Under the pieces are notes generated by a model. It was not told the origin of the DNA. It ran no database searches and was given only the letters and a program-made list of their open reading frames with translations. Shown in pieces: positions 3,001 to 10,343 of a stretch of 64,000 bases of DNA. The stretch comes from Wickerhamiella versatilis (Eukaryota). The stretch spans positions 3,472,001 to 3,536,000 of the forward strand of contig JAQOWU010000008.1 in assembly GCA_030867685.1 (NCBI GenBank), in the 5' to 3' direction. The position numbers were made by a program, and so were the translations under genes. The stretch's first letter is position 1; each line of letters begins with the position of its first letter.

Positions 3001-3512
3001 TTCAGCAACAGCCAATTTCCCTCTGGAGACTGTTGCAAATTGATGATCTGAGTACCCGACAACGATGTGTGGCGATCAGTAACTTTGGTGGGTGAAACCT
3101 CGCTTGGGTCGGAAATGTTCCAAGTGAAGATACTGCGATCAGTAACCAGTCCCAGCGTCTGGGAGTTCAGCCATTTCCAGAAAATAATATCTTCATTCAT
3201 CACTGTATTCTTCAACCGCTGCCTCGAATCAAGATTGACAACCTGGACTGTGCGTCCTTGCGCACGCAAAGCAATTACCATTTCCTGTGATGGGCACATT
3301 ATAGCGGAATCGGCACTCATAGCCTTACGCGTAACGTTGTTGCCGTGCGCAAGATCCACGATAGCTACCTGGTTGCCCGCGCTGCTAGTCTCGCGCACGC
3401 AAACGAACCGGTCACTCTCAAGTGTGCACGAATTGAACGCTATAGCCGACTCCGGAACACCTACAGCCGTGAGCTGCAGATGCTCCTGGAACTTAATAGG
3501 GAGCTCAGCCAT
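1..3512 (-). CDS. CHC1: Clathrin heavy chain (5' part; 3' end runs off the window)
   Basis: Missing from the ORF track because it has no stop in the window. Manual translation from the ATG at 3512 gives MAELPIKFQEHLQLTAVGV...TLESDRFVCVRE...MSADSAIM, and the same frame reads EDLVPYLKMARKSIREPQ at the window edge. Confidence 0.97.
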   Translation of the reverse strand, partial: MAELPIKFQEHLQLTAVGVPESAIAFNSCTLESDRFVCVRETSSAGNQVAIVDLAHGNNVTRKAMSADSAIMCPSQEMVIALRAQGRTVQVVNLDSRQRLKNTVMNEDIIFWKWLNSQTLGLVTDRSIFTWNISDPSEVSPTKVTDRHTSLSGTQIINLQQSPEGNWLLLNGITQEGGRVVGRMQLYSKARSISQAIEGHAGGFGSIRLDGATADTKLIAFVNRTEVGAKLHIIEIDHAADQPAYHKKQVDVYFPPEAGADFPVSCILSSHYGIIYLITKFGFIHLYDVDSGSCIFMNRISSEPVFTACSYQDLGLLVVNRKGQVLSVQLNESTAVPYIMKQLSNPALALTLASRAGLSGADNLYSQQFEALLSSGQYTEAAKVAASSPRGLLRTPATIQRLKNVQAPPGEISPILTYFSSLLDRGTLNKFESVELATPVLQQNRKQLLEKWIGESKLEPSEQLGDLIRPYDTRLAVAVYLRAQVPFKVVQGLAELGEFDKILPYCSQASYNPDYVVLLQSIARVNPDKASEFAIQLISNPETKDKVDLDRVTDVFLSQNLIQQATAFLLDALKDNDPVHSHLQTRLLETNLLNAPQVADAILGNHIFTQYNRSRIAQLAEKAGLPLRALENYDDLKDIKRVIVHSQLPAEWLVAYFGQLTTEQTLEVLREMLKTNLKANLQTVIQVAIQYGELVGPLRLISLFEEFKSAEGLYYFLQSIVNLSEEPAVVFKYIQAAASIGQFSEIQRIISTNNVYQPEKVKNFLKDAHLADQLPLITLCDRFGFIHELVLYLYQNKQFNFIQVYVQQVNPGATAQVIAGLLDVDCDEDKIKSLLDSAVGQVPVGPLAAEVEKRNRLKLLLPFLEKTIEAGSTEAAVYDTLAKVHIDSNNNPEKFLRENSLYNTRDVGKYCETRDPYLAFIAYEKGHNDAELIAITNENSMYKYQARYLVGRADINLWEAVLSDENIHRRQLVDQVVGVAVPQCPNAEDVSVVVKAFMAANLPVELIELLEKIVLEPSPFSDNESLQNLLILTAINAQQQKVSELIDRLDKYDVEEIAKICKEHELNEEAYQIYVKHEQYKEALEVLTDHVLSLDRATDFVEKYDTKQLWSQLAKAQLNGLRITDALNSYIRAEDPSNFAETIEIASRSGKDEDLVPYLKMARKSIREPQ

Positions 3513-3802
3513 GATGTCTCAATGTGCCAGTTGGCTAGTTTGTTTACGTAATGCTCGTGGGGTTTGGCTGGTCAAGTGATGTCAGCCAACACCTAATTGC
3601 TCAGGCCGGAGCTTCAGTCACGCGATATCGTTGAATGGTGTGAAAAACATCATCACTAATAGCTGCTGAATTGCATTCTTGGAGAGGCCAAAATTTGGTA
3701 CGTATGAGCCAAGAGCAGTAACTGAATTCTTGATGTGTTGAATTTTAATTACAGAGAGAGACTAATCTATATGCACTACATCTATAGGGTGACCTGCGTT
3801 GC

Positions 3803-4477
3803 CTAGCAGCAGCATCCACTGCTACAGCAGCCAGAATCATCCTCACAAGGATCGTAGCATGGGTCGCATTCTTCCTCGCCTGTGTAGTTGCAATTGTTAG
3901 ATGGGCAGTAGGTATGCGGGCAGATGAGGCCAATACAGTCGGCCAAAACTCGAGCCCAACGGTTTGCGATGTTGCAAGAGTAGCCAGCAGTACCACAAAC
4001 GGCCTTGCCGCAGCAGCCATCTCCGCTGCCGCAGCAGCAGCCACCGTTTCCACCGCAGCAGCAGCCGTCGCCAGAGCAGCAGCAGCCATCATCATCACAG
4101 CTATCCTCGCATGGGTCATAGCAAGGGTCATCGCATGGATCCTCAACCTCGCATGGATCTTCAACCTCCTCGCATGGATCCTCGCATGAATCGTTGCACG
4201 AATCACCAGAGCAGCAGCCTCCGCGGTGCTTTCGTCCGCGGCGTGAGCCCCGACGATTGCAGCAGCCACGTTTTGTCAAGCTGCGGGAGGAGGTTGTGAA
4301 ATCCTCTGGAGAGGTCAGCTGAACTTTTCCTTCAGGTCCAACCCACAGGCTTCCATCATTCTTGACGTAAACGAGCGGAGTGAGATCACTAGCACCAGAT
4401 TTCCCGGCCGCCGGAGCAGGTGCACAAAAGACGGTGGACAGCAATGGAGCAGCTGCGAGGACTGTGGTGAATTTCAT
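3803..4477 (-). CDS. Orphan secreted cysteine-rich preproprotein (signal peptide, Kex2 KR site, DPC/GCCC repeats)
   Basis: ATG ORF of 224 aa. Hydrophobic N-terminus MKFTTVLAAAPLLSTVFCAP, then LTKR at aa 67-70, then 154 aa with 37 Cys. TATATATA lies about 40 bp upstream. Confidence 0.8.
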   Translation of the reverse strand: MKFTTVLAAAPLLSTVFCAPAPAAGKSGASDLTPLVYVKNDGSLWVGPEGKVQLTSPEDFTTSSRSLTKRGCCNRRGSRRGRKHRGGCCSGDSCNDSCEDPCEEVEDPCEVEDPCDDPCYDPCEDSCDDDGCCCSGDGCCCGGNGGCCCGSGDGCCGKAVCGTAGYSCNIANRWARVLADCIGLICPHTYCPSNNCNYTGEEECDPCYDPCEDDSGCCSSGCCC

Positions 4478-4870
4478 CTCTCAATTGATGGTACTTGATT
4501 GCTGTGAGAGACTCTGATATATATCGAAAATTGCCTGTTCAACATGCCTAATGCAGAAAATACTTTATCTGGACATGTTACGCAATATGGAACTATTGTA
4601 ATATTAGATGTGGACCTAGCACTTTCCTTCGTAGAGAATTTGACTAGCTCCTAGAAAATCGAGTACAGTTACTATAGTAGGTAGGTACAGTCTGATGACT
4701 TACCTTCTTGTCAGAAATTGCCTTTGATAAATTACATAACGAATCTCCTGAACACCAATCAATCCCTCGGTTATGGATGAGCTATCATTTCTATCATGCA
4801 TTGGCTTATTGCTCGTGACCGACGTAGAAGGAAAACGACTATCACTAGCTTAGCCATAAGTTACTAATAT

Positions 4871-5278
4871 ATGCCAGAGCCGGATTCTACGAGAAACATC
4901 CCCCCTGGCTTTTGGTTTGAGCCTTTTTGGAATAACAAGCCATTTGTAAATGAGGTCACAGAAGCAAGGGATCTGTGTGCTGCGGAAAGAAATTATTTGA
5001 GCATGCTCAAAATCTCAATGGCGCTAACATTAGCAGCAGGTTCATGTGTCCTGAGGTACGCAGGGTCCACCCCTCAGGATTATAGCTTGGGTTATGTTCT
5101 CCTAGTCCTTGCTGTTATCATCCCCTTTCTTGTGCTCCTCAATTACGCCAAATTCTATAATGGTATTCGAAGAAGTAATCGCCACCTACACACAAAAAAG
5201 GTATTGCTGATATCGGTAGCCCTCACAGCTACTATAACAGTTATAATAAATATCCGCGAAATTATATCGCGGTCATGA
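4871..5278 (+). CDS. DUF202 / Vtc1-like small membrane protein
   Basis: NEVTEARDLCAAERNYLSMLK matches the DUF202 ARDxxAxERTxLxW-type motif, followed by three hydrophobic segments. Confidence 0.75.
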   Translation: MPEPDSTRNIPPGFWFEPFWNNKPFVNEVTEARDLCAAERNYLSMLKISMALTLAAGSCVLRYAGSTPQDYSLGYVLLVLAVIIPFLVLLNYAKFYNGIRRSNRHLHTKKVLLISVALTATITVIINIREIISRS

Positions 5279-5373
5279 CATGTGCCGTCACGTCTTGCAG
5301 TAGAAGCCATACATGAATGAACTTATCTCCGTAAATTATACTATATATACTATATACAACAACACTTTTAATC

Positions 5374-6258
5374 TTACTCTGAATGTTCTGGTAAAGGCCA
5401 TGTCTGAGTTCCATCGGGATTAAACTTCACGCGTCTGCCATGCTTTCTGTCGTCCTTCGAGGCACCGTAGTGATAACCAACGCGACCAACCTTGGCATTC
5501 GTAAACCGCCAAAGATTTTGTTCATTTTCGTACTGTGGACCGAAGAAAGACACTGAGGACCTGCTAGCCTTATCCTGTGCGCCACTTTGTTCTTCATGAG
5601 GCTCCGTGAGACGCTTGAGAGTGTCCGTGGCAGGTTCAATACCCAAGACCTCAGCAGCATCCACTGGACCAAATGGTTGCGACTCCGCGATACTCTGGAA
5701 AATCTGTCGGTGGGTCTCTTCTGGGATAGGAATTTCCGTTAGATTATCCTTTGCGCTGCGAATAGGTTGGCCATTGTCATCTGTGGGAATTTCGTCAAAA
5801 AGACTTTCCATGGTTTTTCTTAATTTCTGCAAGTCTTTGGACAAAGAGTTTGATTCTCGCATCTTTTCTCGCACCTCGGTAAGCCTGATAATAGCATCTA
5901 TGCGGGGCACAACGATACCGTATTTGAAACTTAACTCCTGCACAGTCCTGCCAGCAGCACGGTCAGCAAGAATAGCCTCTCGCAACTTCTCTCCTACACG
6001 TCTATTCGTCCGTGTTAGCGGATTTTGTGGGAAAGGTTGACGGGTCTCCTGTACATTCCTACCGTCAAAAACTTTCGACCAGTCCGTCATACGGGCACCC
6101 ATTCTTTGTCGATCTGTAACTGGATAAGAGCCCAGAAATGCGGTCTCTCTCCGAAATTTGTGATATGCAGGCGTCCTTGCCAAAGGATTTTTTGTATATA
6201 GACCCTTGAAGTTCTTTTTGCCCAGGAAACGAGCGAAGTCCTGCTGAGGTACCGTCAT
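5374..6258 (-). CDS. MRPS35: Mitochondrial small-subunit ribosomal protein mS45 (Mrps35/Bot1)
   Basis: Motifs QPFPQNP, ELSFKYGIVVPRIDAIIRL, ESQPFGPVDAAEVLG, KVGRVGYHYGA. Confidence 0.85.
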   Translation of the reverse strand: MTVPQQDFARFLGKKNFKGLYTKNPLARTPAYHKFRRETAFLGSYPVTDRQRMGARMTDWSKVFDGRNVQETRQPFPQNPLTRTNRRVGEKLREAILADRAAGRTVQELSFKYGIVVPRIDAIIRLTEVREKMRESNSLSKDLQKLRKTMESLFDEIPTDDNGQPIRSAKDNLTEIPIPEETHRQIFQSIAESQPFGPVDAAEVLGIEPATDTLKRLTEPHEEQSGAQDKASRSSVSFFGPQYENEQNLWRFTNAKVGRVGYHYGASKDDRKHGRRVKFNPDGTQTWPLPEHSE

Positions 6259-6556
6259 GAGAACTTTCGATTATGTAAACGAAATTTAGTATTTATCACT
6301 CTTTCTCTTTCCTCAGATTCTGTTCGTGAACCGATGGCAGGGCAAGAAGGATAAGTATAATTTATACCCAATCTTAGAACTAAGCGTAAGTAGACATAAT
6401 TCACAATGCTTACAACACACAATACTATATATTAGGTTTGGACTATCGACTTTCCGTCACCGGAAAACCCGCCCCGTAGCCGACGGTCCAACCGTGCTGA
6501 ATGAAATAGAGAGACATAGCAATTCAACATTAGCGTCGAATTCGAAAAAAAGTACT

Positions 6557-7012
6557 CTAAAATAGGTGTGGAATACTTCCGACACTTGCCGGGTCGAGTC
6601 CCAGTTTAAGGCCCTTTTCACGAGTTATTTGAAACTGCTTCTTGGATTTTTCCTGTTCTTCGATCAACTGGTGTTCAAGAACTTCGAATTCCACTTTTTC
6701 CAGAGAAGACGAGCCCTGATCAAGCTCCTCTTGAGCAGACTGATCGACTTCTCCAATCATAGCCACATTTTCACCACGAATAACCCATACACCACGGTAC
6801 TTTTCTGCGTAAGCACCCTCAGTATAAAGTCTCTCATAAGTGTCCTGGATCACGATATTACCGAATGTATCGAAGCTTCGCAGAAAGCCAAAAAGGGCAC
6901 GCCCATCTCGCATAGTCACGATAATACGCTTATCTATTAACTCCAGCAGCGCAGCAGCCGTTGTGAATACCTGCAACGGCAGCTCCGCATCCTTGACACC
7001 GGGTTCTGCCAT
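6557..7012 (-). CDS. LSM1: Sm-like protein Lsm1
   Basis: FTTAAALLELIDKRIIVTMRDGR..GFLRSFDTFGNIV...IRGENVAMIGEVD. Confidence 0.93.
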   Translation of the reverse strand: MAEPGVKDAELPLQVFTTAAALLELIDKRIIVTMRDGRALFGFLRSFDTFGNIVIQDTYERLYTEGAYAEKYRGVWVIRGENVAMIGEVDQSAQEELDQGSSSLEKVEFEVLEHQLIEEQEKSKKQFQITREKGLKLGLDPASVGSIPHLF

Positions 7013-10067: not shown

Positions 10068-10343
10068 ATGACGGTGGCTTATATTCACCAATCCTCTGTT
10101 AATTGCTTGAAGAAAGTGCCGTCACTAGATAACCAGACCGGCTGTTCACCTGAAGCTGACAATCACACGATTGTTGAGTGGATGTGCTGCCAATGTGGCT
10201 GTTTCGAATACCCATTTGCCCGCCCAGATTGTTCTCGATGTCATCACCTCCTTTGCCCCTACTGCCCCCGACGCCGCATTCAAGACCTGAAGAATAAACA
10301 GGCGGAAGAGAACCAAGCTATCGATATAGAAAGTGAAGACTAG
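10068..10343 (+). CDS. Small putative zinc-ribbon protein of unknown function
   Basis: ATG ORF of 91 aa with W-x-CCQCG ... CSRCHH-x2-CPYC. It fills the gap before the TRZ1 stop and faces it convergently. Confidence 0.6.
   Translation: MTVAYIHQSSVNCLKKVPSLDNQTGCSPEADNHTIVEWMCCQCGCFEYPFARPDCSRCHHLLCPYCPRRRIQDLKNKQAEENQAIDIESED

Follow-up and report, generated by a model that had tools for sequence, protein, structure and literature searches.

A cysteine-rich secreted precursor of Wickerhamiella versatilis as a candidate disulfide-linked surface protein, with a probable antisense RNA across its gene

When a yeast genome holds a reading frame whose product appears to be secreted, and in which about every fourth residue of the processed chain is a cysteine, the question arises of what kind of protein this is and in which circumstances it is made. 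Such a frame lies in the 64,000-nucleotide stretch of contig JAQOWU010000008.1 of Wickerhamiella versatilis that was analysed here and is referred to below as the window. The original prediction described its product as an orphan, Kex2-processed protein that could chelate metal, be cross-linked into a structure or be cut further into peptides.

Gene and predicted precursor

The frame occupies the minus strand at 3803..4477 and encodes 224 aa (P0001) without an internal stop. Cysteine accounts for 16.9% of the whole ORF, compared with 0-5.2% in the other 42 of the 43 window ORFs of at least 120 aa. The gene is present in a single copy in the genome (9.88 Mb, eight contigs), where no paralogue was found; five of the nine matches to the DPC pattern fall outside the locus, and none lies in a Cys-rich frame of at least 50 aa. 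Among the neighbours, Pfam identifies a Bot1-family gene and a DUF202 gene, and further ones, judged by their sequences, are presumably those of clathrin heavy chain, Lsm1, Vps5, Trz1 and Rcl1. With regard to codon usage, cysteine is encoded by TGC in 32 of 38 cases, while the long ORFs of the window favour TGT (63%), and the GC3 of the frame (0.55) is above that of all 22 long window ORFs (0.34-0.53); this bias could stem from translation selection or from repeat expansion. The parts of the precursor are the following:

3803..4477, minus strand: ORF of the secreted Cys-rich precursor, 224 aa, single copy in the genome
4424..4477, minus strand: putative signal peptide (residues 1-18) with a probable cut between V-F-C and A-P (hydropathy, alignment)
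4268..4423, minus strand: pro-region, residues 19-70 (52 aa), ending in LTKR, which is invariant in 3/3 proteins
4316..4384, minus strand: pro-region motif L-x-PL-[VI]-Y-x3-DGS-[LI]-W-x-G-x-E-x2-[VI]-x-L, residues 32-54 (alignment and shuffle test)
4268-4273, minus strand: Kex2-type site at the end of LTKR (from sequence; cleavage predicted)
4223..4255, minus strand: basic patch RRGSRRGRKHR between CC pairs, residues 75-85, absent from the relative P0003
4097..4207, minus strand: acidic run of eight xD[PS]C units, residues 91-127, mostly C-x3-C (translation, alignment)
4010..4087, minus strand: Gly-rich block, residues 131-156, with GCCC at 131, 138 and 146 and GCC at 154 (translation)
3869..4009, minus strand: six-Cys spacer, residues 157-203, with CPxTYCP at 186-192 (translation, alignment)
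3806..3868, minus strand: C-terminal DPC-type pair (204, 208) and terminal GCCSSGCCC, without a GPI-type tail (translation)

The prepro layout that had been described, namely a signal peptide, a pro-region up to LTKR and a chain of 154 aa with 37 cysteines, is readily seen in the translation and in the hydropathy of the ORF, and each module of the mature part could be located by residue in the order claimed. The N-terminus is hydrophobic, with a nine-residue hydropathy of 1.2-2.1 over residues 1-24, and the cut after residue 18 was placed according to the (-3,-1) rule; in the alignment, the corresponding region of P0003 reads A-L-A followed by A-P. In the window allele residue 18 is Cys, and it is Ser (variant at 4425) in all four RNA runs examined and in the second relative, P0002. 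A gene with a proprotein-convertase P-domain (a 766-aa open frame) is present in the genome. The chain that follows LTKR (residues 67-70) is 24.0% cysteine and contains 23 Gly, 19 Asp and 11 Glu; its acidic residues (Asp/Glu) number 30 and its basic ones (Lys/Arg) 10, and of the 154 aa 15 are Ser/Thr, six are aromatic and none is Gln. P0001 has two N-glycosylation sequons, and its polar C-terminus ends in CCC and lacks the hydrophobic tail of GPI-type proteins. AlphaFold gave no confident fold from the shallow alignments available (mean pLDDT of 34 with the alignment, and of 49 for residues 71-157).

When considered from the point of view of known families, the protein stands apart. Pfam, searched at E values up to 10, returned no family for any of the three proteins (P0001-P0003), metallothionein families included; neither these Pfam searches nor the PDB gave a profile or solved-structure match to a hydrophobin, CFEM protein or killer toxin, and the Atlas held no usable match for P0001 or P0003. 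The PDB yielded one match, to the signal peptide with an E value of 3, which is ascribed to chance; the profile search returned nothing. A match to an already characterised family, which would have spoken against novelty, was thus not encountered in Pfam, the PDB or the Atlas, and the claim of a secreted Kex2-type precursor without a known family stands, with signal, pro-region and KR also kept in P0003. In the literature searched, no description of the protein was found.

Relatives and variation of the frame

A full phmmer search against 1.84 billion representative proteins revealed two relatives, P0002 and P0003. A near-length search with the single protein gave one match among 1001 candidates, and a three-sequence profile found no relative among 8000 longer proteins; the third of its three matches among 7399 proteins, archaeal, at E 0.93 and covering 30% of the query, was dismissed as chance. 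P0002 is identical to P0001 in 217 of 223 aligned residues (97%), comparable to four neighbouring proteins, which show 96-99% identity (287/294, 147/151, 129/135 and 553/559). P0003, a protein of 218 aa recovered with E 6e-4 in the search of 1.84 billion proteins, is more distant, with 36-40% identity (36% over the main BLASTP alignment). It has in common with P0001 the signal, the pro-region motif, LTKR and CPxTYCP, as well as the DPC pair at the C-terminus and a C-x3-C DPC run that closes with GCCC. The pro-region motif (residues 32-54) is the best conserved non-repetitive part of P0001: its local score against P0003 is 71, where shuffled sequences average 21, peak at 48 and in 0/5000 cases reach it, and the match is, by this test, independent of low complexity.

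Two modules fare less well in this comparison. The spacer had been proposed as a possible folded six-Cys domain, a proposal that its weak conservation leaves unsupported (score 50, reached by 31 of 5000 shuffles), only L/ICPxTYCP being alignable; P0003 carries two CPSTYC units where P0001 has one CPxTYCP. Likewise, further cutting at RR/RK sites into peptides loses its support: P0003 lacks the basic patch and, beyond that, any dibasic site in its mature part.

Among strains, both indels listed for the ORF preserve the reading frame: an insertion of 3 nt at 4146 in 4/4 runs, which falls in the DPC run, so that the length of this run varies among strains in frame, and a loss of 24 nt in run X1, by which a unit with three cysteines is missing from the Gly-rich GCCC block. 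The insertion and Ser18 occur in all four runs, so the window allele represents the rarer form among those seen. Because P0003 keeps the motifs, the pro-region match surpasses its shuffles and the listed indels are in frame, the Cys-rich frame is under selection. Among the SNPs listed, three of four are silent on the minus frame and two of four on the plus frame, a difference that does not separate the strands. A side observation concerns the cysteine number, which is exactly 37 in the mature parts of P0001, P0002 and P0003 despite the different spacing in P0003; the X1 version would have 34.

The term "orphan" reflects in part an effect of gene calling. In the protein collection 6/6 neighbours are present, each on 12-15 contigs, whereas exact P0001 is absent and the 90% cluster of P0002/P0001 has one member. 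Gene callers thus seem to skip the frame, and the family may extend beyond two species. In the JGI metagenomes, 0/335 candidate stretches were confirmed as relatives, and a DNA pattern of the pro-motif gave three metagenomic matches, none of them Cys-rich or with the prepro layout. A search of prokaryote genomes (0/81) gave no sign of a bacterial origin.

RNA across the locus and the upstream region

Four of the 12 listed runs were examined, among them three raw-read RNA runs from two studies, all with unstranded libraries. In the three raw-read runs, reads span about 3600-4600 at a depth similar to that of clathrin: 126-208 over the ORF against 151-208 over clathrin in run X7, and 66-99 against 32-69 in run X10. 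Two libraries retain on their RNA 5' ends an adapter that we take to be the template-switch adapter, and these ends carry information on direction. Of 48 loose-end rows 15 are listed, and ten of these are 5' ends of this adapter type. Seven of the ten mark the starts of the clathrin, DUF202 and Bot1 genes, each in its own gene's direction, and the other three lie on the plus strand, before 3603 in X10 (11 reads) and before 3595 and 3603 in X12 (seven reads each). No 5' adapter end occurs near the Cys-rich gene's own start among the rows listed. The plus-strand ends appear in both adapter-bearing runs, which come from one study and are unstranded, X7 alone being ambiguous; their start sites, 3595 and 3603, show a pyrimidine followed by A, with no GGG upstream. 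At the other side, a read pile in X12 ends at 4593 (17/79). The two terminal bins agree with this orientation, as the left one has about 30 inward reads, resembling known 5' ends (19-33), and the right one 77-96, resembling known 3' ends (90-150 for DUF202/Bot1, more for Lsm1). In addition, run X1 has a contig starting at 3585 that is distinct from its clathrin contig, whose end lies at 3527. Two features result from this region and the one upstream of the gene:

3595..4593, plus strand: probable antisense RNA of about 1 kb over the whole ORF (adapter ends, read pile)
4516..4525, no strand: palindrome GATATATATC, with TATATA 41-46 nt upstream of the ATG (putative role)

In view of the adapter ends at 3595/3603, the main RNA over the Cys-rich ORF is probably antisense, starting from the clathrin promoter and reaching to roughly 115 nt beyond the ATG on its upstream side; a share of sense RNA may exist alongside it. 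The original prediction had taken a transcript as a check on the gene: RNA does cover the locus, but it looks antisense. As a practical consequence, unstranded RNA-seq would wrongly score such a gene as expressed. Rfam (3400-6600, E up to 0.1) gave no match.

Several details of neighbouring transcripts emerged from the same reads. The starts of the clathrin heavy-chain gene (3546/3552, minus strand) are only 43-57 nt away from the plus-strand starts, which makes for a very compact bidirectional promoter. The mapped 5' end of DUF202 lies 2 nt before the first ATG (4869-4871), just past the TTACTAA palindrome at 4861, and its true start codon may be a later ATG. Around a shared TATATA-rich stretch (5343-5360), the 3' ends of the convergent transcripts of DUF202 and the Bot1-family gene seem to overlap. 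At the Lsm1-like gene (6275-6430), reads pile up at 6355, 6372 and 6422, which hints at several poly(A) sites; the left-facing pile at 6430 may belong to a short plus-strand RNA from the Bot1 promoter.

The TATA box claimed for the gene holds only in part, in that TATATA is present at 4518-4523 inside GATATATATC but does not fit the consensus TATA[AT]A[AT][AG]. Of the 43 window ORFs, 7 have a TATATA less than about 150 nt away on the upstream side and 10 on the downstream side. Lying about 70 nt before the antisense end, this stretch may be a 3'-end signal besides or instead of a TATA box, and the palindrome as a whole is a possible TATA-like element of the Cys-rich gene, a 3'-end efficiency element of the antisense RNA, or both. 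The 393 nt upstream contain no MSE, and a search of the upstream region for URS1, PRE, Ace1, Mac1, Zap1, Aft, STRE, Rlm1, HSE, Met31 and Cbf1 motifs gave none. The upstream region that the gene shares with its neighbour contains a Yap-type TTACTAA at 4861, one of three such sites in 11,127 intergenic nt; it lies 2-8 nt before the start of the neighbouring DUF202 gene.

Candidate functions and known cysteine-rich systems

Extremely Cys-rich or Kex2-processed proteins are known from several systems, and the likeness of P0001 to each of them is limited. Cnidarian minicollagens, whose Cys-rich domains (CX3CX3CX3CX3CC) are joined into a wall polymer through the reshuffling of disulfides according to excerpts of PMC4863159 and PMC4195985, resemble P0001 in being secretory precursors with a cleaved propeptide before a C-x3-C run that ends in adjacent cysteines. 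However, their exact pattern is absent from P0001, whose closest stretch is C115-x3-C119-x3-C123-x3-C127-x4-CCC, and P0001 further differs by its acidic DPC units and the lack of a Gly-X-Y stretch and of polyproline; with no sequence match, the likeness would be one of analogy and not homology. Avian EDCRP and the mammalian cysteine-rich keratin-associated proteins, which reside inside cornifying cells and have neither a signal nor a pro-peptide, share with P0001 a very high Cys content and DPC-containing repeats, seemingly by convergence. The portion of PMC4423139 consulted describes CCDPCQ repeats in feather EDCRP, varying in number between close species, and disulfide cross-linking.

Among fungal surface proteins, the Ser/Thr-rich stalk and GPI signal of Hwp1 and other GPI adhesins are absent from P0001, and no sequence match to Hwp1 was obtained. 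Hwp1, a stage-specific and Kex2-processed protein, is Gln-rich, with 10-aa repeats and a GPI C-terminus, whereas P0001 has 4-aa units, CC/CCC clusters, no Gln in its mature part and no anchor. For the N-terminal repeats of Candida albicans Hwp1 ([EVIQ]-P-[CDT]-D...), disulfide cross-linking is proposed (PMC10884116, in part). Yarrowia lipolytica Ywp1, presented in a section of PMC7730094 as an unglycosylated, partly disulfide-bound protein of one growth form with neither GPI nor Pir motif, is similar to P0001 as a wall protein without these attachments, a comparison made by description, since the protein searches showed no homologue; the same section links Candida Scw1 to disulfide wall attachment. 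Pir wall proteins, which that source characterises by a signal, a pro-region, a Kex2 site, internal repeats and C-terminal cysteines, share these features with P0001 (Kex2-type cleavage being predicted). The Gln-containing Pir repeat, the four-Cys domain and a Pfam match are lacking in P0001.

Fungal metallothioneins are cytosolic and have no signal peptide, whereas P0001 has a prepro leader with KR; moreover, they are built of CXC blocks, and P0001 and P0002 have no CXC at all, P0003 four. Tremella TmMT, with 57 cysteines in 257 aa arranged in CXC-rich 7-Cys blocks (PMC4755600, excerpt), and Cryptococcus CnMT1/2 nevertheless resemble P0001 in length, Cys density and tandem Cys modules. As for Kex2 repeat-peptide precursors, P0001 has one conserved KR only, and its repeats are not separated by dibasic sites. 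Since defining features of metallothioneins, minicollagens, Pir proteins, GPI adhesins and repeat-peptide precursors are in each case wanting, P0001 is filed in none of these groups; its family is a new protein family of a known functional kind, and by analogy P0001 probably works like a disulfide-cross-linked structural protein.

To the more specific reading of P0001 as a lineage-restricted, inducible, disulfide-linked structural protein of a surface or coat, most likely that of a non-vegetative cell type such as an ascospore or a cell in a mating or stress state, we assign about an even chance. Placing it on the spore or in a sexual-stage coat is a tentative choice, and assigning it to another inducible wall or surface layer is an unlikelier one. 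In such a scheme, the signal peptide would direct the chain into the ER, and the conserved pro-region might provide solubility or sorting until the cut by Kex2 after LTKR in the late Golgi. The cysteines would be oxidised, and the C-x3-C acidic repeats together with the CC/CCC clusters could then form many intermolecular disulfides and hence a cross-linked mesh. Given that GPI tail and Pir repeat are lacking and that there is little room for glycans, the mature chain would be held at the surface through its cysteines. Repeat-number variation and the loss of a three-Cys unit in X1 are easier to reconcile with such a network than with a single, fixed pattern of disulfides, while the count of 37 in all three proteins could reflect a constraint on number, which counts against the network reading. 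With regard to timing, in the cultures sampled the probable plus-strand RNA from the clathrin promoter crosses the gene and its start, and would probably keep the gene silent until induction; the apparently opposite direction of this RNA is the reason for expecting that the protein is made only on certain occasions. A parallel is found in Schizosaccharomyces pombe: according to a passage of PMC3253116, 116 genes combine much antisense with little sense RNA in vegetative cells, and 106 of them rise in meiosis. If the strand derived here from adapter ends is right, an antisense RNA would cover the P0001 gene as it does those mid-meiotic genes in growing cultures.

A bolder version, which we consider rather unlikely, holds that the family forms, after the design of cnidarian minicollagens and of feather or hair Cys-rich proteins, a disulfide-polymerised outer layer on the ascospores or another dormant form of this lineage, is silenced in growing cells by the antisense RNA from the clathrin promoter, and perhaps replaces the dityrosine layer. 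The replacement is suggested by the absence of a Dit1-family match in a first-look search of the genome, in which a SPO11-type frame was found and the Ndt80, Mnd1 and Dit1 families were not; if these weak negatives are real, the meiotic and spore-wall gene set would be reduced. Against the coat reading, and its spore part in particular, speak the lack of a mid-sporulation element upstream and, weakly, that of Ndt80 and Mnd1 matches, and in general the distance of the yeast from which the link between antisense RNA and meiosis is drawn, and the fact that the animal analogues are look-alikes.

The same anatomy could also serve metal binding, P0001 being a metallothionein-like chain that passes through the secretory pathway to the wall, the medium or the vacuole, binds Cu, Zn or Cd and is induced by metal or oxidative stress. 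Its Cys content of 24% matches that of long modular fungal metallothioneins (PMC4755600, in part), an excerpt of PMC2441471 speaks of "small secreted metallothioneins" in a rust fungus, and the CC/CCC clusters, the acidic excess (30 Asp/Glu vs 10 Lys/Arg), the want of a fixed fold in AlphaFold, the variable unit number, the four CXC of P0003, two copper-fist regulators in the genome and the single Yap-type TTACTAA at 4861 are all consistent with it. On the other hand, none of the 36 Cys-Cys intervals of P0001 is a CXC, no metallothionein family matches in Pfam at E up to 10, no Ace1-type, Mac1 or Zap1 site lies upstream, and the Yap-type site abuts the start of the neighbour. The ER oxidises thiols, and the secretory route would therefore do so here, while aromatic residues, of which the mature part has six, are unusual in metallothioneins. 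We thus judge metal chelation, the main rival, to be unlikely; on the sequence evidence it appears less likely than the disulfide-linked structural reading, which seems to fit the anatomy best.

A role in adhesion or mating recognition, with P0001 as a subunit disulfide-tethered to a GPI-anchored partner after the model of the a-agglutinin Aga2 and induced by pheromone or partner contact, would agree with secretion without an own anchor, the Kex2-type site, the likeness of the acidic Pro-Cys repeats to the Hwp1 repeat, probable repression in the sampled cultures and fast divergence between species. Yet 37 cysteines are far above what a tether needs, no folded binding domain is predicted and no pheromone-response motif lies upstream, which makes such a subunit quite improbable. 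More improbable still is a precursor of antagonistic Cys-rich peptides of the killer-toxin or antifungal type, further cut at RR/RK: the prepro layout with KR, the RR/RK sites of the basic patch and the contrast between a conserved pro-region and a variable mature part suggest it, but P0003 has neither the patch nor a mature dibasic site, KR does not separate the repeats, the mature chain is strongly acidic and of low complexity, and no family or PDB match exists. Finally, the functional unit could be the plus-strand RNA, non-coding or translated from a 91-aa frame (3914-4189), with the Cys-rich frame as a silent relic or by-product. The mapped 5' end is indeed on the plus strand and gene callers mostly skip the Cys-rich frame; however, the minus frame is conserved as a protein in P0003 and 97% identical in P0002, like its neighbours, both listed ORF indels are in frame, six short ATG frames precede the 91-aa frame, which has no Pfam match, and Rfam gives none at E up to 0.1. 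To this reading we accord a very slight probability, and an equally slight one is left for other roles of P0001.

Clearly, a secreted protein that is conserved but matches no family, profile or structure is of interest in itself, and since gene callers mostly miss the Cys-rich frame, such yeast proteins may be under-counted. If P0001 does form a disulfide-linked coat, it would provide a fungal case of the convergent design seen in nematocysts, feathers and hair, and would open a first molecular way into the ornamentation of spores or surfaces in this lineage; a review passage (PMC10833146) calls it unknown what the shapes of ascospores do ecologically. If it binds metal instead, it would be an unusual secreted chelator of metallothionein-like kind. 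Elsewhere in the window, a 91-aa ORF at 10068-10343 on the plus strand has several Cys pairs (CCQCGC...CSRCHH.LCPYCP) and no Pfam match, and is possibly a small zinc-binding protein.
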